DNA of 64,000 bases from Candidatus Omnitrophota bacterium (GCA_043822245.1 JBDRBY010000001.1:4337-68336), one strand, 5' to 3'; counted from the stretch's first letter, positions 2,066-38,600 are shown. Program-made: numbers and translations. The notes: a model not told the origin generated them from the letters alone.

Positions 2066-2200
2066 AAATCCCCCTAGCCCCCTTTTTCAAAGGGGGGAAC
2101 GTTCTGCTCCTTTTTCAAAGGGGGGAACGTTCTGACCCTTTTTCAAAGGGGGGAACGTTCTGACCCTTTTTCAAAGGGGGGAAAAGATCTGCCTTTTTTT
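2066..2200 (+). repeat. Array of 4 tandem ~29-bp units, each containing the hairpin CCCCCTTT-TTC-AAAGGGGG followed by GAACGTTCTGA, preceded by the leader AAATCCCCCTAG (locus 1 of a 6-locus family)
   Basis: Read directly: aaatccccctagccccctttttcaaaggggggaacgttctg, then ctcctttttcaaaggggggaacgttctga, ccctttttcaaaggggggaacgttctga, ccctttttcaaaggggggaaaagatctg. It lies between the pilQ stop and the promoter of the coiled-coil gene. Confidence 0.9.
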
Positions 2201-2281
2201 TAAAAAAGAGAATGGAAACTACTTCATTACTTCTTTCATAATTTTTCCATTTTATTTTTAACATTATCTTAGCTTTCGTAA

Positions 2282-4006
2282 TTAAGAATCTTCTGTCAAA
2301 ACCTTCAAATCAGCTTTCCTCGTTCGGCTTACTCTATTGTAAGAAGATAATGACATTATTCTATACTGTTCTTTCGCGTCTTTAACGAAAAAACTGTTCG
2401 GGTAATCAGAAATCACCTGAGAAAATACCTCTTTGGCTTTCGCGTAATCTTTCACTTCATCCTGGTAAATTTTACCTGCAAGATATAATGCCTCAGGCGC
2501 ATGGGCTCCATCCGGAAACTGGGTATAAATATTCATGTAGAGATTAAGCGCTTGTTGTTTTCTGAAATGCTTGTCTTTTCTAACACTTTCCACGCCTTTG
2601 CCTTTATCTAACGCTTTCGCTTTTCTTAAGATTTCCGCGGTAAGGCACAGTTCCGCTGTTTTCTCAATATGTACATGAGTTTCTTCCTCTTCAGCCTCTT
2701 CTTTGTTTAATCGTTTTTTCTCTTCACGTGACCGCAAAATTCGCGGAGTAATAAAAACCGCTAATTCCGTCTGCTGATCCGTACCCTCGGTTCTCGAAAA
2801 CAACGCTCCTAAGAAAGGAATATCGCCTAAAAAAGGGATTTTGTCTCTAGAAACGTCACTCTGCTGTTTTATCAGGCCTCCGATCACCAGCGTCTCGCCT
2901 TCTCTAACTCGCACGGTCGTGTCGGCTTCTCTTGTTGTGATCCTGGGACCCGCGTCCAAAGATTCGGCCAAGGAAGATACTTCCGGGTGTACTCGCATTG
3001 TGATATAACCGTCGTCATTTATCTGCGGAGTTACCTTCAAAGTCGTGCCTATGTCAACAAATGTCGTAGTTTCCGTAGTGCCGGTAGTCGTTTGCGTGCG
3101 CTCTTTGATGGGATATCTCTGCCCTATAATTATGCGCGCCTCCTGACCGTTCAAAACAGCGATAGACGGAGAAGCCAAAAGATTTGCTTTGCCGTCTCTT
3201 ATCAACGCGTCAATTGTCGCGGTAACATTAAGCCCCTTTATACTAAAAGTGTTAAGGACAAACTGCCCCCCGGTTAGAGTGGAAGATTGTTCAGCCATGC
3301 TCATGGTAAGATCCGCTTCCTCTGCGGTTTGCGTAATCCGGTCAAAAAGGCCCTGGCCGGGAGCGTAATCCACATTCCATGTGGTACCCAAAGCTTTTAT
3401 TTCGTTAGATGTGATATCCACAACCTTGGCCTCAACAAGAATCTGCTGAGGGGGGATATCCACTTTTTTAAGCAAATCTTTGATCCTCTGGATATTTACC
3501 GGATAATCCGTAATAATGAGGCTGTTTTGAACGTCATCCGTCTTTATGTCACCTTTTGCCGAAAGAACTTTTCTTAAAAGGTTTTGAGCATCTGCTGACC
3601 TTATGTAATCCAGGAAGATTACCTCCGTTGTAAACTCCACGCTCTCTCCGCCGCCTGAAGACACGTAAATAATGTCATCTCGGACGCTGTAAACTAAGCC
3701 GTTCACATTAAGTATGGCTTTGAGCGCGTTTTCCACGCTCACATTTTTCAAATTTACCGTTACCGTCCCTTTTACATCTGGGCTCGTAACCACGTTAAGG
3801 TTGTACGTCCAAGCGAAAGATCTCAGAATATTCACGACATCCGCGTTTTTGTACTCAAGGTTCACGGGCTGTTGAAATATTTCTTCAACCGTAAGTATTT
3901 TTTTGTCAGGCGCGACGGTTATCCATTCCTCAGCCGCGCCTGAGGCGTTTATAAGGAATAGTCCCGCCACGATGAATACCACGACTTTATTTCTTTTTCT
4001 CAGCAT
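2282..4006 (-). CDS. pilQ: Type IV pilus secretin PilQ with a C-terminal TPR/YbgF-like extension
   Basis: Secretin N-domain and secretin-domain motifs (LLASPSIAVLNGQEARIIIGQ, VFITPRIL). The start is refined to Met19 of the track ORF (ATG at 4006) with a GAGGGG SD 5 nt upstream and signal peptide MLRKRNKVVVFIVAGLFLINASGAA. The last ~120 aa (APEALYLAGKIYQDEVKDYAKAKEVFSQVISDYPNS) resemble the YbgF/TPR fold. Confidence 0.8.
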   Translation of the reverse strand: MLRKRNKVVVFIVAGLFLINASGAAEEWITVAPDKKILTVEEIFQQPVNLEYKNADVVNILRSFAWTYNLNVVTSPDVKGTVTVNLKNVSVENALKAILNVNGLVYSVRDDIIYVSSGGGESVEFTTEVIFLDYIRSADAQNLLRKVLSAKGDIKTDDVQNSLIITDYPVNIQRIKDLLKKVDIPPQQILVEAKVVDITSNEIKALGTTWNVDYAPGQGLFDRITQTAEEADLTMSMAEQSSTLTGGQFVLNTFSIKGLNVTATIDALIRDGKANLLASPSIAVLNGQEARIIIGQRYPIKERTQTTTGTTETTTFVDIGTTLKVTPQINDDGYITMRVHPEVSSLAESLDAGPRITTREADTTVRVREGETLVIGGLIKQQSDVSRDKIPFLGDIPFLGALFSRTEGTDQQTELAVFITPRILRSREEKKRLNKEEAEEEETHVHIEKTAELCLTAEILRKAKALDKGKGVESVRKDKHFRKQQALNLYMNIYTQFPDGAHAPEALYLAGKIYQDEVKDYAKAKEVFSQVISDYPNSFFVKDAKEQYRIMSLSSYNRVSRTRKADLKVLTEDS

Positions 4007-4049
4007 ATTTCCCCTCTTTAGTTTAATTTTCGCCATTGACAACGAAACG

Positions 4050-4907
4050 TTACCTTTCAACCGCTATTAAGTATTCTTCAACACCGTCCGTCAAAATAAT
4101 TTTGTCTTGCTCTATTTTTTTGAGCGTGTACTCGCCTATCACGGAACCTTCCTTCACAACTTCACCTCCTACAATAGCTGTTGGAATCCCAGCGTTGTAG
4201 GTTATTCCTTCTAATTTTATGTCAATCTTAGCTTTTGTCGACTCCGGCCGTACTTTCGAAACAAAAATATCCCGCAGTTCATAAAAACCATCCTTCGTTT
4301 CTTTCGCCTTGAGCTGTTCAGAAAAGGGAACGTCGCCCAGCAGGCTCGATACCACGAGCTTGATTAAACTGTCAGACTCTTTTTTTCTTTTTTGAGGCTC
4401 TGAAATTTCCAATTCTTCTACCTTAAGGAATGGGGATATTGTTTCCACTTGCCGGATGTAATCGACAATTTCCGAAAAAGGCGCGTCAAACCGTATCTCG
4501 ACAAAAATACGGGAATATTCCTCTCCCTTGTCTATTTTCTGGCGTATCGAGTCTATTTTTATATCTTTCGCGAGCCGTGTAAGTTCGGCGATTAAGCGCG
4601 CTGTCGCGTTCTTACTAGGAAGTTTTTTTTCCATCGCCTCTATCTCTTCAAACAGTTCCGCGCCCCTGTTCTGTTCTTCTTCAATCCGTTCCCTGCCTGC
4701 CTGTATCTCCGGATGTTGAGCTTTTATCTGCTCGAATTGCTTTGTCAATCGTTCGGTTTGAGTTTTATATATAAGGAGATTCCCGGTCAAAGGCTTATAG
4801 ACCGCTCCATAATAAAGGATGACACCAAGAATCGCGGCAAAAGCCGTTACGGCAATCCTTTCCCTTTTACTCAAGCTTTTGTATTTTTCTATTATGTTTT
4901 TTCCCAT
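4050..4907 (-). CDS. pilO: Fused PilO-like (TM plus coiled coil) and PilP-like (C-terminal beta domain) pilus alignment protein
   Basis: Start refined to the internal ATG at 4907, 1 nt after the pilMN stop. An N-terminal TM helix is followed by a coiled coil typical of PilO. The C-terminal ~90 aa beta-rich segment sits just upstream of pilQ, as PilP does. Confidence 0.55.
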   Translation of the reverse strand: MGKNIIEKYKSLSKRERIAVTAFAAILGVILYYGAVYKPLTGNLLIYKTQTERLTKQFEQIKAQHPEIQAGRERIEEEQNRGAELFEEIEAMEKKLPSKNATARLIAELTRLAKDIKIDSIRQKIDKGEEYSRIFVEIRFDAPFSEIVDYIRQVETISPFLKVEELEISEPQKRKKESDSLIKLVVSSLLGDVPFSEQLKAKETKDGFYELRDIFVSKVRPESTKAKIDIKLEGITYNAGIPTAIVGGEVVKEGSVIGEYTLKKIEQDKIILTDGVEEYLIAVER

Positions 4908-4908
4908 G

Positions 4909-6774
4909 TTATTGGAATACCACCACCTCAAAGCTATAGACCTGCTTATCCTGCTCTTTTTGCGTGTAACTGAACTTCGCGTCTGAAAACACATCCGTCT
5001 CTTTTACCTTCTCTATAAGCTGAGTAATTAGTACCAGGTTAACAGTAGAACCGACTATCACAAATTTCCCTTCTTCATACTTCAGGCTGTTAACCCATAC
5101 CTCTTCCGGCAAAAGAGCCGCTATCGAACCAAGCATTTTTGAGACATCTACCGGATTTCTTTTCGCGTCGTTAAGAATCTTGAGCTGCGCCTCCAGTATT
5201 TTTTTCCGGTTAACCAATTCATTTTCTTCTTTGGCAAGGTTAATCCGCAAAATCTCATGTTTAGACAAATCAATTTTCGCTTTATCAACCTTTTTTGCCG
5301 ATTCTTCCATCCGCGATTTATAAAACCCTGCCGTTCCCGCCAAAAAACCGCTTAACACAATTGACACGACAAGTAACCCCGTTACTATCTGGACCGGCCG
5401 CTGCCTAAATGCTGTCCACAGAATTTTGAGCGGCTCCTGTCCCGATTCCGGTAGAAAATTCACTCTCCGGGTACTTGCTGCCTTTTGTCCGATAGAAAGC
5501 CCCGCGCCTATCGTAAAGAGGCCGGGTTCCGTTACCAGCACGGCCTTTTGTTTCTTCACACTTTCTAAAACCCTGAACACAGAGAACGGGTCAAAATACT
5601 CTACTGGAACACCTAATTTAACATTCAGAAATTTTTCCAAATTTTTCAGTTTCGCCCCGCCGCCGGATAAAATCACGCGGCTAAACCTCCTGACCTGAGA
5701 CTGCGCGACCTGAAACGAAAAATGCTTAAACAAAAGTTCTATTTCCACCACTAAATTCTCAAGCGCGGATACAAGCGCGTAATAAATCTGTTCCGAGCTG
5801 TCCTTCGATTTTTCAAACAACTCAACATTCCCGCCCAGAGGGGAGAATACTTTATCTTTCGACCAAAAACTAAAGCCATGTTCTTTCTTCAGTTCTTCAG
5901 CCTTTTCTTCGGAAACCCTGCACTGTTTGGCAATGTTCTTGTTTATTCGATCCGAAGTTAAAACAATCTCTTTGGAGAAACATAACGAACGGCTCTTGGA
6001 AACCGCCAAAAAACTTTCCTCCGCGCCTATGTGCACCCATAACTCCACATCCTCTTCATATTCGGACTGCTCATAAATACTGCTGAGGTTCACCAAGCCA
6101 AACTGCGGAGATTCAACGCTGACGGGCTTAAAACCCGCGGCTTCCAACAACGCGATGTGCCTGGCCAGGGCATCTTTGGAAACGCACGCGATAACCACTC
6201 TTTCTTGTGAAACACCTCCGGTATTTTCAGTGATTTTCCATTTTTTGAATTTGCACACCAATTTTGCCCAGCTCAATCCAAATGGTTTAAGCTGGGCAAT
6301 TTTGAACCGGATAGCGGATTCTAATTCTTCATCCGGCATAGGGGGAAACATCATATTGTAAATCTGGACATCCCGCGCGGATAAAGCCGTCACACACGCC
6401 GGGCCGGTATCATTGCGGCCTCTCAGAGCTACTAAAGCGTTTTTTGTCGCGGAAAAAGAATCCTTGACAGAGGGAGCGTCGTAAGGCTGGCTGTCAACAT
6501 TGATGATCTCAAATCTTTTCTTTTCATCCACACCCAAACGGATCATTTTCACAGCTCGGGAACCGATGTCTATAACCACAGGCAGAGGCTTTATATCTTT
6601 CATGTCCGAGAGTGCTTCCGCGAGCTCTTTTTTCGAAGAAGGCACGATTTTGCGGATGTTCTTGCTGTATGTAAAAATACTTGAAACACCTCCTGCCACG
6701 GCTTTCGGGCGGTCAAACACACTTTTTACCAGATCATCCGGCAAGGCATTTGGAGTCTTTTTGTTTTTATCCAT
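4909..6774 (-). CDS. pilM: Fused PilM (actin-like ATPase fold) and PilN (TM plus periplasmic domain) pilus assembly protein
   Basis: The N-terminal half carries PilM/FtsA-like motifs (VVIDIGSRAVKMIRLG...ILSGGGAKLKNLEKFL). It is followed by a TM helix (VTGLLVVSIVLSGFLAG), a coiled coil and a PilN-like C-terminus, and it overlaps the parA stop by 8 nt. Confidence 0.65.
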   Translation of the reverse strand: MDKNKKTPNALPDDLVKSVFDRPKAVAGGVSSIFTYSKNIRKIVPSSKKELAEALSDMKDIKPLPVVIDIGSRAVKMIRLGVDEKKRFEIINVDSQPYDAPSVKDSFSATKNALVALRGRNDTGPACVTALSARDVQIYNMMFPPMPDEELESAIRFKIAQLKPFGLSWAKLVCKFKKWKITENTGGVSQERVVIACVSKDALARHIALLEAAGFKPVSVESPQFGLVNLSSIYEQSEYEEDVELWVHIGAEESFLAVSKSRSLCFSKEIVLTSDRINKNIAKQCRVSEEKAEELKKEHGFSFWSKDKVFSPLGGNVELFEKSKDSSEQIYYALVSALENLVVEIELLFKHFSFQVAQSQVRRFSRVILSGGGAKLKNLEKFLNVKLGVPVEYFDPFSVFRVLESVKKQKAVLVTEPGLFTIGAGLSIGQKAASTRRVNFLPESGQEPLKILWTAFRQRPVQIVTGLLVVSIVLSGFLAGTAGFYKSRMEESAKKVDKAKIDLSKHEILRINLAKEENELVNRKKILEAQLKILNDAKRNPVDVSKMLGSIAALLPEEVWVNSLKYEEGKFVIVGSTVNLVLITQLIEKVKETDVFSDAKFSYTQKEQDKQVYSFEVVVFQ

Positions 6775-7684: not shown

Positions 7685-7921
7685 TTAAACGCTATAGCCT
7701 TTATCAAACCTTCGTTGTATAAGCCGCAGTGTATACCCCTCTTTTCTCATGTTTGTAATCGTGTCAAAGACGCTGCTAATCCCTTTTTTGTCGTACAGCC
7801 GCACGTTACCCTTGCGAACACCGACTTTGAAAAGCCCGATATTTGTGTAATAATTAATTGTCGCGACTGAAACCTTCAAATCTTTCGCCAGCTCTTTCGC
7901 TGTAACAAATTTTTCCAGCAC
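7685..7921 (-). CDS. Small MerR/excisionase-type HTH DNA-binding protein (~79 aa)
   Basis: HTH TAKELAKDLKVSVATINYYTNIGL followed by an LYD motif. The track ORF starts at a TTG (7939). An in-frame GTG at 7921 has the strong SD GGAGAGGAGGTGG and is preferred. It ends 18 nt before parA. Confidence 0.5.
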   Translation of the reverse strand: MLEKFVTAKELAKDLKVSVATINYYTNIGLFKVGVRKGNVRLYDKKGISSVFDTITNMRKEGYTLRLIQRRFDKGYSV

Positions 7922-8107
7922 GAGCCACCTCCTCTCCAATCATGTAAGCAAACAATTGTTTCAAAATGTCATTTTGAAGTGTACACAAAAACCAATGAAT
8001 AGTCAAGCCATTGTGTGTAATTATTTTAGCTCCGCTACATATTGTTTTTCAAAACAAACATCATGTTAGCATCTGTTAACGCATACGGTTGTTTCGTTGA
8101 TTGTTTT

Positions 8108-8306
8108 TAAATAGGGACGTTTTAAATAGGGACGTCACCCATTTATTCACCCATTTATTTGAGACGCGATAAATCGCGTCTCTACGTTATTGGTTTCTTT
8201 TTTAAATAGGGACGTCACCCATTTATCGTTAAATAGGGACGTCACCCATTTATTCACCCATTTATTTGAGACGCGATAAATCGCGTCTCTACGTTATTGG
8301 TTTCTT
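8108..8306. repeat. Tandem duplication of a ~95-bp unit. Each unit has two copies of AAATAGGGACGTCACCCATTTAT plus the perfect 22-bp palindrome GAGACGCGATAAATCGCGTCTC. This is iteron-like and sits upstream of the merR-parA-pil operon.
   Basis: Read directly. Unit 2 overlaps the last codons of yggS, so unit 1 is a duplication of the yggS 3' end region. The palindromes are at 8161-8182 and 8268-8289. Confidence 0.85.
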
Positions 8307-13026: not shown

Positions 13027-14070
13027 CTATATTGTCAAAACAGAATCAACTGTGCCGAACGCATTTCTTTTCGCGGAAGGATTTTTGGGATCTCTTATCC
13101 ATTCTTCATCTACCAAAAACTTATACCGGTAAGTTCCTTTGTTTAAAATGAAATGAGCTGACCATTCCCCGTTTTCAAGCCTTGTCAATCTGCTTACTTC
13201 CGCCTTCTGCCACCCGTTAAAATCTCCAAGCACGTATACTCCCCCTGCCTCCGGAGCCTTAAACGCGAACTCATGGATAGCGGCCGAAGTATTCACGCCT
13301 TCGGCAGAGAGAATCTCACTCGTTAAATTGTAAAAATCCAAGGCAACGTTAGACTTACAATCAGTCTCAAATATTGTCCTGCCGACCTTGGCCGCTTCTC
13401 TTAATTTCATACTCACGCGCACTTTTGTTTTTAGCAGATATGGCCCCAGTTTGCGTATCGCGTCTTTTTCAAGTTCTCTTACAAACTTTGACCGATGGTC
13501 GTACATATTCATGACAAAAAAAATCGGCGGCCTTCTCCCTGTTTCCTTTTTTAAGAGCCCTGCCACGCGGTACACGCTGTTTATCCCATTAAACGAAAAG
13601 TAGCTCATATCCATCGGGACAACCATCATATCCGCGGCAAACATAGAATTGAGCGTGAGAAAACCAAAACTCGGAGGTGAATCAATTATCACATATTCGT
13701 ATTTTTCAAAAAACCGAGAAGCTAAAAGCCGGGACAGTATAGATGCCGCGCCTTTTACTGTTCCTAAATTAATTTCAGCCGCGCTCAGCATCATGTTTGC
13801 CGGAATGAACGAAAATTTTTCGCGGCCTGTTATAAGCATCTCTGCCACAGGAACATCCTTGCCGCTGAAGCGCGCTTTAAAAATATCGTAAGATGTTTTA
13901 CAATCAGAAGCCTTCTCGCTATATCCCAGAGCGAAAGTTGCGTGCGCCTGCGGGTCCAAATCTATCAGTAAAATCTCACTGCCAAACCGCGCGAGAGCCG
14001 CCGCGATATTCACCGCGAGTGTCGTTTTCCCACAGCCACCCTTTTGATTTGCAATTGATATGACCTTCAT
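13027..14070 (-). CDS. ParA/MinD-family ATPase fused to a C-terminal AMPK-beta-type glycogen-binding domain (CBM48)
   Basis: N-terminus [27 protein letters not shown]...LLIDLDPQ (deviant Walker A). The C-terminal ~80 aa ([53 protein letters not shown]) matches the AMPK1_CBM/CBM48 consensus (GSFNNW...Y.YKF.VDG.W..DP). SD is GAGGAG. Confidence 0.8.
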
Positions 14071-14233
14071 ATTGCTCCTCTTAGACCATTTTTTGGTATT
14101 GTCAAAAGTTTGTATCCGAATTTTTCTTAATCCTTCGCGTCTAAGACGGTCATCTAATATTAACCTTCATCCCCCTCAAACTTGTCATTGCAATCTCCGC
14201 GAAGCAATCTTATATTCTATCCCACCTTAAAAT

Positions 14234-14325
14234 TCTCCCTGGCCCCCTTTTTCAAAGGGGGGAACGTTCTGACGCTCTTTCAAAGCGCGGAAATATATCT
14301 GTCCTTTTTTCAAAAAAGAGAAGCG
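14234..14325 (+). repeat. CCCCCTTTTTCAAAGGGGGGAACGTTCTGAC hairpin repeat (locus 2) plus two degenerate following copies, in the divergent promoter region
   Basis: tccctggccccctttttcaaaggggggaacgttctgacgctctttcaaagcgcggaaa...tccttttttcaaaaaagagaa. Confidence 0.8.
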
Positions 14326-14492
14326 AAACTACTTCATTATTTTTTTCATAATTCTTTCATGTTATTTTTAACATTATCAATTTTTTAATTTGAAAGAAGT
14401 ATAGCACACGAAAATAAAAAGGGAAAGGCGTATTTTTTTTCATAGCCCCTACACAAAGAACAAATTATGTGGCATACTATGACTGAATTTTT

Positions 14493-15380
14493 ATGTTTAA
14501 CATTTTAAAAAACAAAAACACTAACGACCAGATAGATTTTGAATTGTCCCGGACCTACTTTAGAAACTTTTCAAAAGAATCTGACTTTCAAAATACTGAG
14601 TCAAATATTCCATCGACTAAAATCAATCGAGTAAAACAGGTTTTCTTTGGAGCCGCGATTTTCGCGGTCACCGCGGTTATTGTTTTCTTCGGGGTACATT
14701 TTTTAAAAAGCAAAAGTGTTATATTTGAAGTCAAGCTTAACGTCGCGGATAATGCCACAGAAACTCCCGAAGCGTCAGTCCTTTCTCCCGCTCCCGTAAT
14801 GCCGGAGATTGTGGAAAAACAAAAAAAAGAAGAACCTCAGGTAGTCTTCACCAACGGCAGATTCCTTTCCGGATTTGAAAAAACTCTCGAAGGCTGGGAA
14901 CTTCCTGAATGGACACTTCAAAAAAACTCATACTCCGCGTCCTCAATAGCCAGAAGTACCGCCTTCGCCAGCAAAGGAAACGCGAGCGTCGCGCTTTCCC
15001 TTAACTTTCCCGGGACAGAATGGACTAGAGCTCTCATTGAAAACGAAGAATACTTCAATTTTAAAGATTTTGACGTGATTTTAGTGGATATTTACCTGCC
15101 CAAAACGGCTCCACACCGATTGCGTGGAAGTTTTGTCTTCACCACGGGCGACTCTTGGACTTTTATGGAAATGGCGCGCGGCAGACGGCTAAAGCCGGGC
15201 CAATGGACAACGATCGCGGCAAATATATCAGCCGGCAGTACCGACTGGAAAAGTGCTCACATAGACGAAGCGTTTAGACAAGACATCCACAAAATCGCCT
15301 TAAAAATCGAATCTGTAAACGTCCCCTACTCCGGAAGTGTATACATCGACAATATTCGCGTCGCGACAATACAAAAATAG
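14493..15380 (+). CDS. Membrane-anchored hypothetical protein with a C-terminal CBM-like beta-sandwich domain (W/G-rich, CBM11/CBM35-like pattern)
   Basis: N-terminal cytoplasmic stretch, a TM helix (VFFGAAIFAVTAVIVFFGVHFL), then an extracytoplasmic domain with aromatic-rich motifs (EGWELPEW, GDSWTF, GQWTTI, GSVYIDNIRVA). This is one of three plus-strand genes. Confidence 0.35.
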   Translation: MFNILKNKNTNDQIDFELSRTYFRNFSKESDFQNTESNIPSTKINRVKQVFFGAAIFAVTAVIVFFGVHFLKSKSVIFEVKLNVADNATETPEASVLSPAPVMPEIVEKQKKEEPQVVFTNGRFLSGFEKTLEGWELPEWTLQKNSYSASSIARSTAFASKGNASVALSLNFPGTEWTRALIENEEYFNFKDFDVILVDIYLPKTAPHRLRGSFVFTTGDSWTFMEMARGRRLKPGQWTTIAANISAGSTDWKSAHIDEAFRQDIHKIALKIESVNVPYSGSVYIDNIRVATIQK

Positions 15381-15399
15381 CAATTACTTAGCGAAGGAA

Positions 15400-15435
15400 A
15401 AATCCCCCTCTGTCCCCCTTTTTCAAAGTGGGAAG
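15400..15435 (+). repeat. AAATCCCCCT-CCCCCTTTTTCAAAG(T)GGG hairpin repeat (locus 3, slightly degenerate) between convergent genes
   Basis: aaaatccccctctgtccccctttttcaaagtgggaagtcg. Confidence 0.75.
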
Positions 15436-15462
15436 TCGTGTTTGTTCCAAAGGTAGAATGAA

Positions 15463-16488
15463 TTATCCAAACAAATCATCCGCTTTGGCCTTTGAATTCG
15501 ATATTTCAGTTTTTTTTATCTCTTTGTCTGACCAAAGTTCTTCATTCTTGTCCTTGATAAAATATTTTCGGTTTTTCATGGAAACAAAACTGCTCCATGC
15601 CTGGCCCTCTTTGGATTGGGAAACTTGAATCTCTTTTACCGCGTTCGCCTGGGAAACAAGTTCATCTGTCTGATACACAATAGTCGCCTCAAGTGTCTTT
15701 GGAAGCACCGGCGACTGTTGTTCATACTCTCCGTGATGGCTTAAAATAATATGCTCTAAACGCAGGCGTAAATCATTAGGAAAATCCGGCACTTCCTGAA
15801 TTTTTTGACTGAGAATCCGATACCCGATGGCAATATGCCCTATGAGGCCGCCCTCAACGGTATATTCCATCTTTTTTATATCCAATTCGTACACCTTGCC
15901 TATATCATGTATAAATGCTCCAAAGATAGCCGCGTCTCTATCTGCTTCGGGATACAAAGAACACACGTTATCGACTATGAACATAACTTCATAGGTATGT
16001 TCCAAGAGGCCGCCGATATACGCGTTATGCCAATTTTTTGCCCCTATTCCATCTTTAAACAAAACCATTAGCTCTGTATCCCGGATAAAACATTCGGCTA
16101 ACCGGCTTATCCATGTGTTTTTTATGTTCTTCAAATAACCAATCACAAATCCAAAAAACGTATCCCGGTTTTCTGCCACACGCACCATATCTTCGTACCG
16201 AAACGCCCTTTCATCCGCTTTCACGATATGATCCACTTTCAATTGTTTCTCTTCACGATACTTATCCACCACACCCGTCACGCACACAACATCACCGGTA
16301 TCCGCGGCATCATTAAATTCTTCCGCGTTATCCCACAAACGGCCCTCTATTTTACCCGTTTTGTCTGAAAGAGTCATTTGGAGATACGGTTTGTCATATT
16401 TTGTCAATTTTAGTTCCTTTTTCCTAAGCATAAAAAAAGAATCTATTTTTTCGTTAACCTTAAAATCAGAAATAAATTTTTTGTCCAT
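15463..16488 (-). CDS. yhaM: YhaM-like 3'-5' exoribonuclease (N-terminal OB fold plus HD phosphohydrolase domain)
   Basis: OB-fold N-terminus (MTLSDKTGKIEGRLWD) and HD-domain motifs (FIHDIGKVYE...ILSHHGEYE); 341 aa. Confidence 0.65.
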   Translation of the reverse strand: MDKKFISDFKVNEKIDSFFMLRKKELKLTKYDKPYLQMTLSDKTGKIEGRLWDNAEEFNDAADTGDVVCVTGVVDKYREEKQLKVDHIVKADERAFRYEDMVRVAENRDTFFGFVIGYLKNIKNTWISRLAECFIRDTELMVLFKDGIGAKNWHNAYIGGLLEHTYEVMFIVDNVCSLYPEADRDAAIFGAFIHDIGKVYELDIKKMEYTVEGGLIGHIAIGYRILSQKIQEVPDFPNDLRLRLEHIILSHHGEYEQQSPVLPKTLEATIVYQTDELVSQANAVKEIQVSQSKEGQAWSSFVSMKNRKYFIKDKNEELWSDKEIKKTEISNSKAKADDLFG

Positions 16489-19764: not shown

Positions 19765-19830
19765 TTTAACCTTTATTAACAAAAATTACTCTTTAAGACT
19801 TTTGCGCGACAATCGGGATTATCGCAACTC

Positions 19831-19898
19831 TTAAATCCCCCTGGCCCCCTTTTTCAAAGGGGGGATGGATTGAAATAAGGGAGCTAGGGGGATTTAAG
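19831..19898 (+). repeat. Most complete copy of the hairpin repeat family: leader TTAAATCCCCCTGG + CCCCCTTTTTCAAAGGGGGG + inverted leader CTAGGGGGATTTAA (MITE-like, with terminal inverted repeats)
   Basis: cttaaatccccctggccccctttttcaaaggggggatggattgaaataagggagctagggggatttaag. Confidence 0.85.
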
Positions 19899-19954
19899 AA
19901 TTAAAATGGAACACAATTTATTTTTCCGCCCTTATGAAAAATAGGTGTCCAACA

Positions 19955-20560
19955 TTACATTTTGCTAATCTGAAACACCGCGTTTAGGGCAAAAACGTTG
20001 GGTAGTAGTTTTATGATTTTTCTTTCGGTTAGAAAGATTCCTTTTTCAATAATTATTCCCTGGCTTGAACAAAAATTCTCAAAATCTTTTATCGAAAGAA
20101 AATGAAGGTTTGGGGTATCGTACCATAAATACGGCAGGGACGCGGTTATGGGAACATGGCCGCCAAAAAATATCTGTATCCTGGCTTTTATGTTACAAAA
20201 ATTCGGAAAACCAGTTATGACCTTTTTGCCTACTCTCAAAGCCTCTATTATCGCTTCTTTGGGCCGATACACCTGCTGCATTGTCTGATTAAATATCACA
20301 TAGTCAAACAGGCCGTCCGGATATTCTTTTAATCCTGAATCAATATCACCGTGTGAAACACTAAGGCCTTTTTCCACACATTTATAAATTGCTTCCTCAT
20401 TTATTTCCACGCCCGCGCCTTTAACACCTTTACTCCGCTCCAAATACTCCAACAGCTCTCCGCGCCCGCATCCGACATCAAGCACTTTTGACCCTTCACC
20501 TATCATATCCCCGATGGCTTTAAGATCAAGGCGCAAATCTTCTTTTTCTCGGCTTATCAT
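19955..20560 (-). CDS. metW: Methionine biosynthesis protein MetW
   Basis: SAM-MTase-like MetW signature ([15 protein letters not shown]), ~200 aa, 4-nt overlap with metX. Confidence 0.8.
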
Positions 20561-25622: not shown

Positions 25623-25958
25623 TTTTGATTTTACATTTTCAAGATTGTCGGGGATATTACAGGTCCCCTTACAAATGGGGGGTGGCAAAACGTTAAAAAT
25701 AAAATAGTCAGTCTCTTGACCTTGCTATTTTTACTTTTATGGTTCATACTTGATACATAGAGTAATAATGACGTGTTCTTTCATATTGCTTAAGTTCCAT
25801 CAAACGATAAAGGCAAACTATTCGAAAGAATAGGGCTGCAATGTCATGAGCCTAAATCCCCTTTTGGGGACATGGTCGTCAGACTGCCGAATTTGACTCC
25901 TTTGGATTTTCATCTCAATCTGACTTTTTTGCGGCCCTACTGTTTAAGGCGGGGAGAG

Positions 25959-27011
25959 ATGAAACTCTTAAGGAAAAATTCAAATTTAATTATTTTTTTT
26001 GTTCTAGCTGTTTTTTTCTCATCGATTATCTCCTGCCCTTCAATTTCCTTAAGTTCCGAAATAGACTTTTTGCCTATGCAAAAAGGCATGTGTTACGTGA
26101 CGTGGGATAAAAACAAGTTTTCTTCCTATTACTCGGATGAGTCTTTAGAAAAATTAGTATCAATGGGTGTCGAATATGTATCAATAACTCCAACCCATTA
26201 CCAGGAAAGTTTTGCCTCTACTGATATAAAAAGCACGGACCAAACTACCTCTATCTCGAGTTTAATCCATGCGATAAAAAAATCTCACGCGCTCGGCTTA
26301 AAGGTTATGATAAAGCCGCACATTGATCTTATTGACAAGTATGACGGCACTTATTGGCGCGCGGACATCGGATTTTCTAATGAAAAAGACTGGCAAAAAT
26401 GGTTCACTGGATATAAAAAACTAATGAATTCCTACGCGAGCATATGTGAAAAACATAATGTCGAACTCTTCTGCGTGGGCACAGAGCTCGCTTTTGCCGC
26501 GCAAAAAACCTCTGAATGGCGTATCATCATAAGCTCAATAAGAGGAATATATTCCGGCAGGCTTGTATACGCGGCAAACTGGGATAATTTCAAAAATATC
26601 GGATTTTGGGATGACTTGGATTATATCGGCATAAACGCTTTTTTCCCTCTTTCGCAAAAAACAAATCCAAGTTTAGAAGATTTAAAAAACGGATGGAATA
26701 AGTGGAAACAAGACCTCCAACTATGGCAGGGGAATCTTAAAAAACCGATTATCTTCACAGAAATAGGTTATCCCAGCATCTGGCACGCGCCAAATTCTCC
26801 GTGGCAAAACCCTGGAAGCGGGAATTGCGACTTAATTATTCAGGCGAAATGTTACAAAGCTTTTTTTGAAACCATCTGGACAGAGCCATGGCTCGCGGGG
26901 GTGTACTGGTGGAAGTGGGATACGAATATCCACGCGGGAGGAAAAAATAACCGTAATTTTACGCCGCAGAATAAACCCGCGCAGGAAATCATAGAGGCTC
27001 ATTACAAATGA
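25959..27011 (+). CDS. Secreted clan GH-A glycoside hydrolase, GH113/GH5-like (putative beta-mannanase)
   Basis: Signal peptide from the internal ATG 25959 (MKLLRKNSNLIIFFVLAVFF, GGGGAGAG SD). Candidate catalytic glutamates are in VGTELAF and IFTEIGYP, with GH-A spacing. Assignment to a specific family is tentative. Confidence 0.5.
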   Translation: MKLLRKNSNLIIFFVLAVFFSSIISCPSISLSSEIDFLPMQKGMCYVTWDKNKFSSYYSDESLEKLVSMGVEYVSITPTHYQESFASTDIKSTDQTTSISSLIHAIKKSHALGLKVMIKPHIDLIDKYDGTYWRADIGFSNEKDWQKWFTGYKKLMNSYASICEKHNVELFCVGTELAFAAQKTSEWRIIISSIRGIYSGRLVYAANWDNFKNIGFWDDLDYIGINAFFPLSQKTNPSLEDLKNGWNKWKQDLQLWQGNLKKPIIFTEIGYPSIWHAPNSPWQNPGSGNCDLIIQAKCYKAFFETIWTEPWLAGVYWWKWDTNIHAGGKNNRNFTPQNKPAQEIIEAHYK

Positions 27012-35229: not shown

Positions 35230-35559
35230 TTATACATTCATCTTCTCAGCCCATTCGCCAATAATCGGTATTCTCCATTTATTCCCCATGAGAACCTGCA
35301 CTATCGCGATAAGGGAAATGAGGCCGAAAATGAGCACGCCTAATGTATAAATCAGCGGGCCAAAAATTGGTATAATACTGATTATTCCGACTCCCACTTC
35401 AATAATAAAAAGCATAAGACCCTGCCGGCTGTGAAAGCGGACAAACTCATCGTTTTTTTTCATTAAAACAGGTATAAGGCACAATACCCACAGATACGAG
35501 AGTACAGCATACACACTGCCGCTTGAAGCGGATTTTAACGGTTTTTCTTCTGTCATCAT
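35230..35559 (-). CDS. DUF4870-family small membrane protein
   Basis: VLSYLWVLCLIPVLMKKNDEFVRFHSRQGLML pattern; 109 aa. Confidence 0.5.
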   Translation of the reverse strand: MMTEEKPLKSASSGSVYAVLSYLWVLCLIPVLMKKNDEFVRFHSRQGLMLFIIEVGVGIISIIPIFGPLIYTLGVLIFGLISLIAIVQVLMGNKWRIPIIGEWAEKMNV

Positions 35560-35635
35560 TAAGCCCCCTTTCTTTTAGTGTTTAAAACATTCATGATAAC
35601 TATTGTAATGTATGTAGGGTAAAAGTCAAATGAAT

Positions 35636-35666
35636 TATAGAGACACAGCAATGCCTCGTCTCTATA
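35636..35666. repeat. Degenerate copy of the AGAGACGAGGCAATGCCTCGTCTCT palindrome (TATAGAGACACAGCAATGCCTCGTCTCTATA)
   Basis: The right arm is identical to the 27444 copy; the left arm has diverged. Confidence 0.7.
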
Positions 35667-35676
35667 CCTGACAAAT

Positions 35677-35716
35677 AAAAAAAACCTGGCTCGCTTTCAC
35701 GAGCCAGGTTTTTTTA
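35677..35716. terminator. Bidirectional rho-independent terminator: A8-CCTGGCTCG-cttt-CACGAGCCAGG-T7
   Basis: A GC-rich 9-bp stem with an A-tract and a T-tract; downstream of the OMP gene on the minus strand. Confidence 0.85.
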
Positions 35717-35734
35717 CGTTGCTGAAATAACTTC

Positions 35735-37198
35735 TTAGAAGCTTAATTTAACTGAACCTACAATATCTGTCGCAACATTGTTCTGGTCGGTGTCAAAATG
35801 ACTACCTGGAACAAACCAACCGGCTAAGAGGTCAAAAGACACATCTTCCGTGTAATCCCAAGTCAACTTAACATCAAATTCATCGCCCAGATTTGTCTGG
35901 CTATTTGTTGCGCTGTATCTTTCCGCCAGCCAGAAGTGGCCATACGTAGCATCAATCTTCAAATTGTCCATCGGTTCTAAACAACCTTTGACTAGAAGCT
36001 GATGCTGGTTTGTCGTTGCAGGTGAACTTGTTGTGGCGGTTCCGTAGTACACATTCTGGAACTCTCTAATCGCCGTATCAAATTTTCCTCTATACATTGG
36101 ATCCCATCCTGAGTAGTGGCCGGTATCAGACGCGGATTCATCTATTTGATCCAAATTCTTTTCGCCGGAATAATAGATGTACTCCATTCCTACAACAGGC
36201 TTCCACTCGAAATTGTCCTGCCAATAACGGCACTCAACCATAGCGTCAAGCGCAATAGCCGCTCTTGGCTTCTCATGAATCTGGCTCGCGGCACCGATAT
36301 AGTTGCCAAGCTGTGTGGCGCATTCAAGAGCCATTGTCCAATCTTCAAGAGGATCAAAACTACCTCTCAATCCAAGCACATGAATGTCGTTCGAATTCTG
36401 CCCGCCAACAACGGTAACAACCTGCGCGGCATCATAAGCATTGCCGGAAAATTTCTGCTGTCTATACCACCAATAAGCTTCAGCTTCCGCGTTGTACTTG
36501 TCAAACGCGTATCCGACGTTTACACCCCAAAGATTAACATCATCATCCGCTCTTCTGCCATTTTCAGCTATCTTTGAATAAACCGCGTCGATTGTCCACG
36601 GCGCGTAATCCAAGGTCGCCCTAACGGCGTCAAAAGAATTAATCGCTGTGTATTCCTTCGCGTACAACGCCGCGTTCGGATCCTGCTGTTGGGCGCCGAC
36701 GATAAACCCTTTACCAAACCAAATGTCCTGTCGTCCAATCTTCAACGTTAAAGGAGAATACAGGAACTCTTTCAGTTCGATATACGCCAAGTCAACCAAC
36801 ACATCGAACGCTGAATTGTTGGCACTCGGGTCAACCGCTACCGCGGTAAACCGATCTCTGTAGGGTACACCAATTGTCCCTGTTTCACTAGCCGCACTTT
36901 CATATTCCCCATTTCCCCATACTCTCTGGTTAACCAATCTGACGCATCCAGCAACGTTGTCGGTAAGATCAGCGTCTACCTGCATCTCGGTGGTGCTCAT
37001 GAGATGGGTCGCGTAGTTGCTGGTTACCATACCGTCATTCGCAACCGGAGCGGCATCTTTATCCAGATTGTAAGAACCTCTCGCGAAGGCGCGAAGCGCG
37101 ATATCACCGCTTATCTTCACGCTCTGCGTCTCGGCGTACGCGATAGTCGATACAGCGCACACAAGCATCGCAACACACATAACCTTAAATAACTTCAT
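35735..37198 (-). CDS. Outer-membrane beta-barrel protein (porin-like), 487 aa
   Basis: Signal peptide MKLFKVMCVAMLVCAVSTIAYA, alternating amphipathic beta-strand pattern, C-terminal ...VKLSF (terminal Phe), AGGAGG SD. Confidence 0.65.
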   Translation of the reverse strand: MKLFKVMCVAMLVCAVSTIAYAETQSVKISGDIALRAFARGSYNLDKDAAPVANDGMVTSNYATHLMSTTEMQVDADLTDNVAGCVRLVNQRVWGNGEYESAASETGTIGVPYRDRFTAVAVDPSANNSAFDVLVDLAYIELKEFLYSPLTLKIGRQDIWFGKGFIVGAQQQDPNAALYAKEYTAINSFDAVRATLDYAPWTIDAVYSKIAENGRRADDDVNLWGVNVGYAFDKYNAEAEAYWWYRQQKFSGNAYDAAQVVTVVGGQNSNDIHVLGLRGSFDPLEDWTMALECATQLGNYIGAASQIHEKPRAAIALDAMVECRYWQDNFEWKPVVGMEYIYYSGEKNLDQIDESASDTGHYSGWDPMYRGKFDTAIREFQNVYYGTATTSSPATTNQHQLLVKGCLEPMDNLKIDATYGHFWLAERYSATNSQTNLGDEFDVKLTWDYTEDVSFDLLAGWFVPGSHFDTDQNNVATDIVGSVKLSF

Positions 37199-37672
37199 TT
37201 TACCTCCTCAAAGGTAATTGCATCAAACAGCTCAAAGCTGTCTCTTTGAAACATTTATTAAAGAGCAAACATTGTGTCTGCACTTATTTTTTATATGAGT
37301 ATCGCCGATAAGTTTGCAGTTTCAGGCTATTCTCCACGTGAAAATTATTTCCTCCCCCCTTTCTTTGCCAGAATCGAAACTACTTTGGCGGTACAGGTCT
37401 CTCTCACCAATGTTATGTGAAGTATAACACGAAACACGACTTAGTCAAGAGTGAAAAGTAGAAAAAAATAATGTTAGGTCAAAAAAAATTTTACTTAGAT
37501 CTGAGTGAAAGGATAGGTATCCGTTTGGCGGCGAATCGTTCCAGTGCTCGAACACAGCCATCCGCCTCTTTTGCTGCTCTGCGAGAAGTTATACCAACTC
37601 TAAAAATTAAATGCCCACAATTTTCCACCACTTTGGAAAAGAGGGTAGGGGAATTTTTTGTAAATCCGGAAT

Positions 37673-37707
37673 AAAATCTCCCATATCCCCTCTTTGTCAA
37701 AGAGGGG
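37673..37707 (+). repeat. Degenerate hairpin-family member AAAATCTCCCATATCCCCTCTTTGTCAAAGAGGGG (locus 6)
   Basis: Read directly, inside the 580-bp non-coding region upstream of the OMP gene. Confidence 0.6.
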
Positions 37708-37778
37708 TAAGACATAGGAATGGTTGTTTCTTGGTAGGATAGTCGCGAATATCCATTTATTTTCTGTAATTGGTATTA

Positions 37779-38429
37779 CTATCCTTTTGCCACACGTACT
37801 ATTTCAACAGAATTATCTATGATTGAGGAATGAATTTTTTCAGAATCGGTAAGTGACAATAACAGTTTTTTGTAACTCTCGCGCGTAAAAAGGTCACCTG
37901 GCGCGTGCGAGTCAGTATTGACAACCATTTTAGCTCCTGTTTTACTCGCCATATCAAAGACATGTTTGTTACCGTCCCGATGCCCTCCGCGGGCTGTAAT
38001 CTCAAGATAAACTCCTTTTTCAGCCGCCAAACACGCGTCATGTTCAAGAATAAATCCCGGATGCGCCAGGATATCAACTCTAGCGTTTATTGCCGCGTTA
38101 TTTGTGCCCGTCAAAACCGGCTCAGCCGGCGACTCCCCGTGCGCGACAACTATTTTAGCACCTTTTTTTCGCGCGTAGCGCGTAAGTTCGCCAAAAAGCT
38201 CCAATGGCGCGTGAGTTATCTCAACCCCGGGTATCACTAAGACATCCCAGTACTTGTTTAACTTCTTGGAAACTTTTATAAGCCCTGAAAGCACCGCGTC
38301 AATGTTCGAATGATCAACATGATCGGTAATCGCGATTGCCTCGTAACCGGAAACCTTCGCGCGCCGTACGAGTTCACTGGGCAGAAGTACTCCGTCGCTC
38401 AAAATTGTGTGAGTGTGCAGGTCTATCAT
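37779..38429 (-). CDS. PHP-domain phosphoesterase (histidinol-phosphatase-like)
   Basis: MIDLHTHTILSDG...ITDH. The start is refined to the ATG at 38429, with a perfect AGGAGG SD 5 nt upstream. Confidence 0.7.
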   Translation of the reverse strand: MIDLHTHTILSDGVLLPSELVRRAKVSGYEAIAITDHVDHSNIDAVLSGLIKVSKKLNKYWDVLVIPGVEITHAPLELFGELTRYARKKGAKIVVAHGESPAEPVLTGTNNAAINARVDILAHPGFILEHDACLAAEKGVYLEITARGGHRDGNKHVFDMASKTGAKMVVNTDSHAPGDLFTRESYKKLLLSLTDSEKIHSSIIDNSVEIVRVAKG

Positions 38430-38482
38430 TTTTCCTCCTAAATAGGTCATCTGTTGTACATTCTTTTTCGCTCATGGGTAAG

Positions 38483-38600
38483 CATAGGTATAAAATCCCC
38501 CTAACCCCCTTTTTCAAAGGGGGGAAAGTTGTAATTGTTTACCATCTTTTTCAAATTGGGGAAAGTTGTAATTGTTTACCATCTTTTTTGAAGGGGGGAA
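38483..38600 (+). repeat. Hairpin-family array (locus 5): AAAATCCCCCTAACCCCCTTTTTCAAAGGGGGG followed by ~2.5 tandem 37-bp units (CTTTTTCAAA[GT]TGGGGAAAGTTGTAATTGTTTACCAT)
   Basis: Read directly; it overlaps the 3' end of the transglutaminase-like gene. Confidence 0.85.

Follow-up and report, generated by a model that had tools for sequence, protein, structure and literature searches.

The 64,000 nucleotides (nt) of Candidatus Omnitrophota bacterium DNA analyzed here (GCA_043822245.1, JBDRBY010000001.1:4337-68336; hereafter the window, with positions counted from its first letter) contain genuine repeats that belong to a family found across phyla. The repeat unit consists of three sequence blocks with the symmetry of an intrastrand triplex, is variably present between relatives and, in other genomes, is tightly associated with a DUF559 gene. 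We give a probability of about 0.55 to the reading that the repeats of the window are dispersed, non-coding elements of the intrastrand-triplex type, non-autonomous and similar to repetitive extragenic palindromes (REPs) and their inverted doublets (REPINs), whose cognate partner is a DUF559 nuclease encoded elsewhere. The triplex third strand, the near-identity of sequence across phyla and the DUF559 neighbor were all missed in the initial annotation of the window.

The initial annotation had proposed a repeat family at six loci. Six plus-strand loci of the form AAATCCCCCT-NN-CCCCCTTTTTCAAAGGGGGG were indeed found, compared with 0.02 expected by chance. The core CCCCCTTTTTCAAAGGGGG (at most 3 mismatches) was found nine times (2078, 2106, 2134, 2162, 14243, 15414, 19845, 37688, and 38505; all on the plus strand), vs. 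0.02 times expected in shuffled sequence; the apparent minus-strand matches of the core were the same palindromes read in reverse. The leader AAATCCCCCT alone was not enriched in the window (8 found, 7.5 expected), and it stood exactly 2–4 nt 5' of the hairpin at 2066, 15400, 19833, and 38493. A covariance model run with filters off, whose training rows included five window copies, identified six full copies of 40–49 bits, all on the plus strand, and none in the 40–64 kb part of the window. The uniform plus-strand orientation that had been described thus holds for the full copies only, as two degenerate minus-strand copies, which had not been listed as copies, are also present.

Triplex-type symmetry and host range of the repeat family

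On its G-rich strand, which is the minus strand in the window, the unit reads CCCCC(C)TTT, a GAA loop, AAAGGGGG(G), a 3-nt loop NNA and GGGGG(G)ATT, the last block being a mirrored version of the preceding purine block. For instance, the plus strand of 2064–2103 contains the leader AAATCCCCCT, the linker AG and the hairpin CCCCCTTT-TTC-AAAGGGGG(G), and its minus strand the pyrimidine block CCCCCTTT, the loop GAA, the purine block AAAGGGGG, the loop CTA and the reverse-Hoogsteen block GGGGGATT(T). Eight to nine triads are possible (G.G:C × 5–6, A.A:T, and T.A:T × 2), with two loops of 3 nt each. These values fall within the ITxF limits of 6–15 triads per stem and 1–6 nt per loop (PMC4666352), and the order of the blocks (pyrimidine, Watson-Crick purine partner and mirrored third block) is that of the class II purine type.

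The stems were nearly invariant and the loops variable, so that the rare stem variants are the informative ones. The mirror test covered 407 full copies with a perfect hairpin, including 34 informative copies with an interrupted C-run. It was run with a register-free script, because parallel relations defy nested brackets and MAFFT loses the register of the leader. The leader was closer to the mirror image of the 5' arm than to a direct repeat of it in 31 of the 34 informative copies, 27 of which were perfect mirrors; two exceptions were parsing artefacts, in which the computed stem had swallowed the linker. The arm CCCCTCT occurred with the leader TCTCCCC in 15 copies at 10 loci, including the window copy at 37672, and the arm CCTCCC with the leader TCCCTCC in 7 copies at 7 loci. 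The linker between leader and arm was 3 nt in these variant classes, and the two classes, which are oppositely asymmetric, behaved alike. Thus, the leader mirrors the pyrimidine arm, which is the symmetry required by a triple helix.

Two triplex forms are conceivable. In the class IV form, the plus-strand leader would run alongside the purine arm in parallel, with T.A:T and C+.G:C triads; in the class II form, the minus-strand block GGGGGGATT would occupy the major groove and run antiparallel to AAAGGGGGG, with triads of G.G:C, A.A:T, and T.A:T. The class II form also accounts for the conserved AAAT of the leader. The variant copies show a third block apparently under selection as a mirror image, which neither a plain hairpin nor a protein-bound palindrome needs. 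Watson-Crick pairing of the C-run of the leader with the G-run, as in an attenuator-like switch, was rejected, since the variants keep the mirror and not the complementary relation. The ViennaRNA folds represent the hairpin only, and the triplex is read from the symmetry of the blocks.

A scan of one genome per species (596 Gb) with the 19-mer hairpin pattern CCCTTTTTCAAAGGGGGGA identified at least 119 loci, compared with ~4 expected by chance by our own arithmetic. The hosts are beta-, gamma-, and delta-proteobacteria, Omnitrophota, Kapaibacterium, Chloroflexi, Acidobacteriota, and Elusimicrobia, and include Lysobacter, Luteimonas, and Geobacter. The search of related genomes that the initial annotation had called for thus revealed near-identical copies in many phyla. 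The 35-nt consensus was nearly identical among the host phyla, and the GC contents of the hosts ranged from 0.31 to 0.73. The hairpin was preceded by the leader AAATCCCCCCT, which had not been part of the seed, and a variable 2-nt linker; a regular expression found the leader in 107 of the 119 listed loci. By BLAST, the element was the only DNA common to the window and these loci. Regarding previous knowledge, nothing relevant to the exact motif or its peptide translations was found in the searched literature, and around locus 1 no Rfam family was matched at the gathering threshold or at E ≤ 10, with only chance microRNA-like matches. Only two weak matches, both in Planktothrix, were obtained from a collection of 72,556 plasmids, which gives no sign of a plasmid-borne element.

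The copies were arranged as 63 isolated singles, 29 pairs with the leaders outside, 26 pairs with the leaders inside, and larger clusters, and gene-less inward-facing pairs with spacers of 10–47 nt were common. Type A (linker T+NN) comprised 262 copies and type B (T-NNN-T, with C5 runs) 91. Of the inverted pairs, 51 were A-B, 33 A-A and 3 B-B, so that A-B pairs were enriched. The linker bases NN in GGGGGG-NN-AGGGGGG (G-rich strand) varied freely, including CT, CC, GC, TT, GT, and TC. By crude heuristic gene calls, 113 of the 168 non-edge copies were intergenic, vs. ~11% of the DNA. The intergenic copies were distributed over convergent (23), co-directional (71) and divergent (19) gaps in proportion to gap length, and the singles in co-directional gaps lay with (9) or against (10) transcription. 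This spread and the 9/10 orientation argue against a general terminator-like or strand-signal role. The mostly intergenic position of the copies and the frequent stop codons in the linker led to the rejection of a coding repeat. In addition, longer tandem repeats of ~229 nt embed the unit in Lysobacter sp. Root916 (984–1913) and in Thalassocella, which indicates that the family forms larger, lineage-specific composite repeats. The units of Xanthomonadales were preceded by hexamer runs (AGCAAG AGCAAA AGCAAA).

The presence of the element also differs between relatives. MetW of the window was 100% identical to a protein on a 71-kb contig of a Candidatus Omnitrophota metagenome-assembled genome. 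A syntenic Omnitrophota relative, whose MetW is 79% identical to that of the window, had the same gene order over 20 kb and zero copies of the element. The gap between metW and the helicase gene was 51 nt in the relative vs. 172 nt in the window. As the element is in the window but missing from the gaps of the relative, either the lineage of the window acquired it or that of the relative lost it. Moreover, the relative encodes a Zincin_1 protein of 122 amino acid residues (15024–15392) between the OB/HD gene and the convergent gene for a protein of 292 residues, and its counterpart site in the window is only 82 nt (15380–15463), which hold the unit at 15398–15439. This difference fits the local instability reported around such motifs. 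At 79% identity of MetW, the relative is too diverged to fix insertion boundaries or target sites.

Association with DUF559 nuclease genes

All open reading frames (ORFs) of at least 80 codons from the 119 listed loci (3,982 ORFs) were clustered all-against-all. In three unrelated genomes, those of Thalassocella and Sulfuricella and a betaproteobacterial metagenome-assembled genome, one family of small ORFs was closely enclosed by copies of the element. The encoded protein matched Pfam DUF559 (E = 1.7e-34), and the nearest homolog of known structure was PDB 3hrl of Neisseria gonorrhoeae (E = 3e-19). DUF559 belongs to the Vsr/I-Bth0305I clade of PD-(D/E)XK nucleases (PMC3424549). The large ORF clusters (signaling proteins, ABC ATPases, and alcohol dehydrogenases) were dismissed as coincidental; by reading of their sequences, one member among the signaling proteins carried diguanylate-cyclase/EAL-like motifs and another was sigma-54 activator-like.

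A metagenome scan seeded only on two internal protein motifs confirmed at least 564 relatives, the best 80 of which were kept. The element was present within 260 nt of the DUF559 gene in 70 of these 80 loci, on both sides or on one. Its density was ~2.7 per kb beside the DUF559 gene, vs. 0.16 per kb elsewhere in the same loci. Upstream of the gene, a reverse-oriented copy ended with ...AGGGGGGATTT 0–15 nt before the start codon, and ...GGGGGGATTT abutted the ATG. Downstream, a forward copy started at the stop codon, which abutted AAATCCCCCC..., with TAA often being the first part of AAATCCCCCC. Distal partner copies were often present, which resulted in the order of pair, gene and pair, and the two flanks of one DUF559 gene shared the same loop variants. 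The genomic contexts were diverse, as 99 flanks formed 74 unrelated groups with only a few syntenic groups of 3–6. Residues D52, E63, D65, H69, D78, R81, and R94 were conserved in at least 93% of the DUF559 sequences, and each of two homolog searches yielded more than 2,600 cluster representatives. The link between the element and DUF559 was not found in the searched literature.

Many DUF559 representatives were on contigs of 0.5–2 kb, and many of the predicted proteins carried C-terminal tails derived from the repeats (...IPPNPPFSKGG and ...PLFQRGE), of which PLFQRGE and PPFSKGG are spurious peptides. The short contigs and the tails translated from repeats indicate that the repeats break assemblies and lengthen gene calls, and the breaking of metagenomic assemblies is of practical concern.

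Holder et al. (2015; PMC4666352) described the intrastrand triplex motifs of 5,246 prokaryotic genomes and plasmids. Their main example, TMECO (synonymous with BoxC and the PIT element), reads 5'-CCCTCNCCC-N3-6-GGGNGAGGG-N3-GGGNGAGGG and is a class II purine motif that forms a stable triplex as single-stranded DNA in vitro (PMC4666352). Escherichia coli MG1655 possesses 23 TMECO copies, which are always intergenic and without strand bias, and TMECO of type A and type B pair as inverted repeats (PMC4666352). TMECO was reported from 262 proteobacterial genomes and is associated with local genomic instability, and the authors never found transposase or integrase remnants near it (PMC4666352).

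An independent check in E. coli also brought DUF559 and a triplex motif together. A perfect type-A TMECO was located 165 nt 3' of ycjD, the single DUF559 gene of E. coli. A degenerate TMECO overlapped the stop codon of ycjD and was followed by a duplicated fragment of the ycjD 3' end. At MG1655 1351039–1351407, the gap between ycjD and fabI, a partial second copy of the last ~60 nt of ycjD (GGAGACGGTGCTGGAGAATATTC...CTGAACCG) was followed by another degenerate motif. These features suggest past recombination or duplication at the motif in the ycjD-fabI gap. TMECO no. 9 is listed between fabI and ycjD in Supplementary Table S2, without comment (PMC4666352). A doubt over the BoxC copy, which can be drawn as one long imperfect hairpin, was dropped, as it matches the published TMECO pattern exactly.

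ycjD was found in 3,378 of 5,426 complete genomes, with one copy each and two in one case, and the number of TMECO places per E. coli genome ranged from 1 to 27. To compare the two, 60 complete genomes were sampled at even steps through the ranking of a concatenated ycjD and TMECO query. The ycjD-positive genomes (n = 37) had 10–23 TMECO places with a median of 17, and the ycjD-negative ones (n = 23) had 1–16 with a median of 3, 14 of the 23 having four or fewer. The association was significant when phylogeny was ignored (Mann-Whitney p = 1.4e-9; Fisher p = 5e-8), and the number of independent events may thus be small. According to work ascribed to Bertels and colleagues, REPIN populations after loss of the REP-associated tyrosine transposase (RAYT) reportedly show a pattern that resembles that of TMECO and ycjD in E. 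coli.

Likeness to known systems and alternative explanations

Similar to BoxC/PIT/TMECO (Hoyne and Maher, 2000; PMC4666352), the family described here has the block order of a class II purine motif on its G-rich strand, a length of ~35 nt and multiple intergenic copies with conserved stems and variable loops. Shared features also include two subtypes found together as inverted repeats, a copy number that varies between relatives and surroundings free of transposases. Different from BoxC/PIT/TMECO, however, its blocks are C5-6T3/A3G5-6/G5-6ATT and not CCCTCNCCC/GGGNGAGGG/GGGNGAGGG, so that the loop end would comprise A.A:T and T.A:T triads. With CCCCCTTT...AAAGGGGG...GGGGGATT, the window units depart from the TMECO pattern, and the C6/G6 motif was absent from the main text and the examined supplementary files of PMC4666352. 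Judged by its blocks, the window element is a different sequence family of the structural kind of TMECO and not a TMECO. In addition, its host range is much wider (many phyla, with the GC range given above), and the window adds tandem arrays of hairpins only. The link to DUF559 is not mentioned in PMC4666352, where ycjD is merely listed as a flanking gene.

The initial annotation had suggested REP/MITE-like elements, MITEs being miniature inverted-repeat transposable elements. As a general category this is appropriate, as the units are dispersed, non-coding, mostly intergenic, present as singles, inverted pairs and clusters, and absent from the gaps of the relative. The leader is read not as a preface to the hairpin but as the third strand of a triplex. 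Similar to REP/REPIN-RAYT systems and bacterial interspersed mosaic elements, the family consists of short extragenic palindromes that occur as singles, as inverted doublets folding into long hairpins and as mosaics. Also similar to REP/REPIN-RAYT, one single-copy protein gene is flanked by repeats, and repeat numbers appear lower in genomes without that gene. The flanked gene, however, encodes a Vsr-like PD-(D/E)XK nuclease (DUF559) instead of an HUH Y1 transposase. In addition, the units have a mirror-repeat third block but no GTAG head, and their sequence is kept across phyla, whereas REPs are lineage-specific.

With H-DNA, the element shares a pyrimidine mirror repeat around a short linker and the same triad chemistry. 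Different from H-DNA, all three blocks, including the Watson-Crick partner, are on one strand, so that the fold needs a single strand or an extruded hairpin and not a supercoiled duplex with half a strand unpaired. The nuclease fold family of I-Bth0305I and Vsr is shared with DUF559 (PMC3424549). I-Bth0305I provides a precedent for a selfish gene of a site-specific nuclease that copies itself into gene-less targets, and the gene-less inward-facing pairs of the family are a likeness to such targets. The DUF559 family differs from I-Bth0305I/Vsr in having no intron or intein context, and the DUF559 protein consists of only ~120 amino acid residues, with no extra DNA-binding domain and no known cleavage activity or target. 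Similar to elements of the IS200/IS605 type, the element possibly depends on folded single strands, perhaps on the lagging-strand template; in the window, what is presumably the lagging-strand template carries the G-rich strand of every full copy. The two differ in the class of enzyme and in the flanks, which are symmetric inverted copies here instead of distinct left and right hairpins on one strand, and a strand bias is not established for the element here.

Several explanations that do without a DUF559 partner were weighed. If the units were terminators or 3' mRNA-stabilizing hairpins of the minus-strand genes, their orientation would follow transcription. In agreement with this, a minus-strand gene has its stop codon 20–130 nt upstream of five of the six loci, RNA of minus-strand sense would contain a G/C hairpin of 8 bp, and consensus intrinsic terminators are not enriched in the window. 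However, CTAGGGGGATTTAA (minus strand) or GAACGTTCTG (plus strand) comes after the stem in place of a U-tract; direct reading of all loci agreed with the initial annotation that they have no T-tract and are hence not classical terminators. Moreover, a terminator scan reported none of the copies, the organism uses canonical terminators elsewhere (e.g., 35715–35678), and the locus at 14228 is in a gap between divergent genes. The distribution of copies in other genomes, by gap length across the kinds of gap and in both directions among co-directional singles, also speaks against this explanation. In E. coli, TMECO/PIT/BoxC act neither as promoters nor as terminators (PMC4666352). An RNA hairpin leaves the mirror relation between leader and arm unexplained, and RNA does not form triplexes of the purine motif (PMC4666352). 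We regard this explanation as unlikely. The units could also be host-beneficial sites for a conserved DNA-binding or structure-specific protein that acts in nucleoid organization, replication or repair, with DUF559 being merely regulated or insulated by them. Such a role would fit the extreme conservation of the sequence of stem and leader, beyond their structure, over GC contents of 0.31–0.73 with variable loops, and the G-run that abuts the ATG of DUF559 could act as a ribosome-binding site. The copy number, however, differs greatly among close relatives (none in 20 kb of the relative; 1–27 in E. coli), which would not be expected if the signal were essential to the host. There is also no known candidate factor, and the copies have no positional preference relative to genes. 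Host sites are therefore improbable as well.

The dispersed palindromic units in intergenic DNA, as singles, inverted pairs and clusters, resemble classical REPs or REPINs mobilized by a RAYT (HUH Y1). RAYT genes are said, by Nunvar in 2010 and by Bertels and Rainey in 2011, to be single genes flanked by repeats. The search for a cognate RAYT that the initial annotation had proposed revealed none; among the 3,982 ORFs of the 119 listed loci, not every one of which was scanned against Pfam, no recurrent transposase-like family was seen, and the recurrent neighbor is the DUF559 nuclease gene. A conserved GTAG/GGAG head is lacking, as the linker varies freely, and neither the near-invariance of the consensus across phyla, in contrast to lineage-specific REPs, nor the mirror-repeat leader is a REP feature. 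Mobilization by a RAYT is thus very improbable. MITEs of a DDE-type insertion sequence, with leader and hairpin as the terminal inverted repeat, would account for the 70–120-nt inverted pairs with near-identical ends, such as 19831–19897. We give this origin just as little weight: target-site duplications are not visible, a related full-length insertion sequence was not found, there is no transposase nearby, and the plasmid collection gave the two weak matches only. In addition, single half-units are commonest (63), and the two pair polarities are about equal (29 and 26), which is not what a fixed polarity of terminal repeats predicts.

A strand-oriented chromosomal signal read relative to replication, similar to Chi or to the FtsK-orienting polar sequences (KOPS), had also been considered in the initial annotation. 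In a window whose GC skew is negative throughout, the G-rich form of all six full copies coincides with the G-rich minus strand, and GGGGG-NN-AGGGGG loosely resembles the KOPS of E. coli, GGGNAGGG. Such a signal is hardly credible, however, as 6/6 gives only p = 0.03 and is confounded with gene orientation, two degenerate copies are on the other strand, and inverted pairs are frequent elsewhere (55 isolated pairs vs. 63 singles), with singles oriented almost equally with and against transcription. A density of six loci in 64 kb, with none in 40–64 kb, is also far too low, and TMECO copies favor neither strand (PMC4666352). Resemblances to the tRNA T-arm/acceptor, KOPS (GGGNAGGG) and Dcm/Vsr sites (CCWGG vs. 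CTAGG in the linker) were dropped, since the linker varies freely.

In the reading that we prefer, non-autonomous triplex-type elements with a DUF559 partner, the copies would have been gained in this Omnitrophota lineage and then amplified locally by slippage into arrays of hairpins only. The DUF559 nuclease, a Vsr-like PD-(D/E)XK enzyme, would be the cognate enzyme rather than cargo or a favored neighbor, and would recognize the folded hairpin or triplex while the G-rich strand is transiently single-stranded. Nicking by this nuclease might then promote copying, gain or loss of the element, or the homing of its own gene into gene-less inward-facing pairs. In the window, the minus strand carries the G-rich form and is also the non-template strand in almost every gene. 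By the usual rule, the negative GC skew makes the minus strand the leading-strand sequence and hence the lagging-strand template. The position of the G-rich strand on the lagging-strand template and non-template strand could explain the uniform orientation of the full copies, which is inseparable from chance (p = 0.03) or from a bias in gene strand.

A number of observations weigh against this reading. The triplex is deduced from symmetry of sequence only, a small number of independent events may have given rise to the informative variants, and the hairpin-only tandem units lack the third strand, so that the arrays do not wholly fit a triplex. The gene calls behind the context statistics are crude and heuristic, and the statistics of the association in E. 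coli ignore phylogeny; ycjD-negative O157:H7 strains and some others in the sample keep 8–16 TMECO copies. No DUF559-like ORF was found in any frame of the 64-kb window (best hmmsearch E = 1.9). With no DUF559 gene within 260 nt, the window copies are thus orphan units. Nor was a DUF559 of Omnitrophota found, as the top 120 homologs name only proteobacterial, Desulfobaccales and similar sources. The adjacency could also mean that the DUF559 gene is cargo or a preferred insertion site. We know of no enzymatic activity of DUF559 on such motifs. TMECO in duplex DNA and in vivo footprinting with dimethyl sulfate gave no triplex signal (PMC4666352).

The same idea can be extended tentatively, at somewhat less than even odds, to both motif families. 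BoxC/PIT/TMECO and the C6T3/A3G6/G6ATT family would then be non-autonomous partners of a selfish or domesticated system in which a DUF559 nuclease nicks folded single-stranded DNA and thereby drives their spread, turnover or homing. If true, this system would be an analog of REPIN-RAYT with a different class of enzyme and a three-stranded DNA structure as its recognition element, and would provide a function for the orphan family DUF559/YcjD and for repeats unexplained since the 1990s. To our knowledge, BoxC/PIT/TMECO have been known for about thirty years with no function, origin or mobilizing activity assigned to them. If the link is causal, it would make this old question testable with one small protein and a 35-nt oligonucleotide, and would reveal a second, mechanistically distinct genome inhabitant of the REPIN-RAYT type as well as a function for a large orphan family of nucleases. 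The analysis of the window yielded a second, far more widespread sequence family of the three-block architecture, comparative evidence for selection on its third block as a mirror image, and DUF559 as a recurrent partner in two unrelated motif families and two data sets.

Repeat loci and other features of the window

The window has a GC content of ~0.42 and a GC skew that is negative throughout. As initially annotated, nearly all genes flanking the repeats, as nearly all genes of the window, are on the minus strand, and Pfam assigned the neighbors to a TPR protein, a secretin, ParA-CBM48, a UvrD/PD-(D/E)XK helicase-nuclease, MetW and a PHP protein. The units are listed in Table 1.

Table 1. 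Repeat units of the window and the G-rich-strand unit
Position	Strand	Feature	Score or measure	Sequence or detail	Setting
2064–2103	+	Full unit	43.4 bits; 8-bp stem, -7.7 kcal/mol		3' of secretin gene (2282–4060, minus strand)
2104–2188	+	Three hairpin-only units without leader	28-nt period	Cores 2106–2124, 2134–2152, 2162–2180	
2189–2212	+	A/T-rich hairpin closing the array		CTGCCTTTTTTTTTAAAAAAGAG; homolog at 14300–14323	
14228–14268	+	Full unit with degenerate leader	41.8 bits	AAAATTCTCCCT-GG-CCCCCTTTTTCAAAGGGGGG	Between parA-CBM48 (start 14070, minus) and gene for 295 residues (start 14493, plus)
14269–14327	+	Two further hairpin units		First GACGCTCTTTCAAAGCGCGG; second, A/T hairpin TCCTTTTTTCAAAAAAGAG	
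15398–15439	+	Single full unit, type B	49.2 bits; one stem mismatch	AAATCCCCCT-CTG-TCCCCCTTTTTCAAAGTGGGA	Between convergent genes
19831–19870	+	Full unit, left half of inverted pair	40.2 bits		Between metW (stop at 19955) and helicase-nuclease gene
19865–19897	-	Degenerate inverted partner	9.1 bits	Leader AAATCCCCCT intact at 19886–19895; hairpin decayed	
37620–37659	-	Degenerate copy	19.8 bits	Plus-strand reading CCACTTTGGAAAAGAGGGTAGGGGAATTTT	
37672–37713	+	Variant full unit	41.5 bits	AAAATCTCCC-ATAT-CCCCTCTTT-GTC-AAAGAGGGG	3' of PHP gene
38490–38530	+	Full unit	47.7 bits		Between PHP gene (start 38450) and transglutaminase-like gene (stop at 38576)
38531–38606	+	Two further units with decaying hairpins	37-nt period		Last unit overlaps final codons of ORF 38576–39214
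		G-rich-strand unit as one oligonucleotide		5'-TTCCCCCCTTTGAAAAAGGGGGGCTAGGGGGGATTT-3'	

Tandem units were present at three loci, as had been described, and their periods were 28–37 nt instead of the 29–37 nt given before. The extra tandem units lacked the leader at all three array loci. The array at 2080–2183 comprised 3.7 copies of a 28-nt period with 96% matches, and its hairpin-only units at 2104–2188 were probably made by local slippage duplication. By direct reading, 14243–14327 consists of three successive hairpins of ~29–30 nt, and the stem of GACGCTCTTTCAAAGCGCGG departs from the consensus on both arms (CGC...GCG). The array at 38509–38601 comprised 2.5 copies of a 37-nt period, and the last unit at 38531–38606 ends in the inverted leader-like GGGGGGAAATTT.

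The units at 19831–19870 and 19865–19897 form a REPIN-like long hairpin of 68 nt. The inverted leaders noted earlier around 19831–19898 were thus confirmed, and the stretch of 19828–19900 folds as one long hairpin (-23.7 kcal/mol, z = -6.5). The copies at 37620–37659 and 37672–37713 form an inward-facing pair with the leaders in the middle, which is the gene-less form of the arrangement seen around DUF559 genes elsewhere. In the unit at 37672–37713, the leader mirrors the interrupted arm, which fits the triplex rule.

Loci 1 and 2 share more than the repeats. A 30-nt box, TGTCAAAAGTTTnTATCnnAATTTTTCTTA (minus strand TAAGAAAAATTnnGATAnAAACTTTTGACAATACCAAAA), is common to 1980–2009 and 14100–14129, where none is expected by chance, and immediately precedes the ribosome-binding sites of the TPR/coiled-coil gene (840–1985) and parA-CBM48 (13027–14070). 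It may be a shared promoter or operator of both genes. A conserved module of ~65 nt at 2213–2275 and 14328–14385, directly upstream of both hairpin arrays in the minus-strand sense, contains a tiny ORF (MKEVMK or MKKIMK, followed by a stop codon). At locus 2, the module is preceded by a TATACT-like box, and this box is also present in the syntenic relative. The module could be a small RNA or encode a leader peptide. With this module, loci 1 and 2 are paralogous composite regions of ~280 nt, beyond mere insertions of repeats.

Other repeats of the window are unrelated to the triplex repeats. A block of ~100 nt is duplicated in tandem at 8105–8300, in the gap upstream of minus-strand genes at 7685–7939, and contains TTTTAAATAGGGACG, two TCACCCATTTAT and the hairpin GAGACGCGATAAATCGCGTCTC. 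Tandem Repeats Finder identified heptamer repeats at 45572–45658 (GAATAGT/CACTATT), beside tRNA-Arg(CCT) at 45493–45566, and at 51590–51668 (CTATCCA/CCCCTAT). Finally, a cyclic di-GMP-I riboswitch aptamer (RF01051; 66 bits, E = 1e-10) was found on the plus strand at 25802–25891, before the plus-strand gene at 25872–27011, and a chance leader-like match to AAATCCCCTT at 25854 falls within this aptamer.

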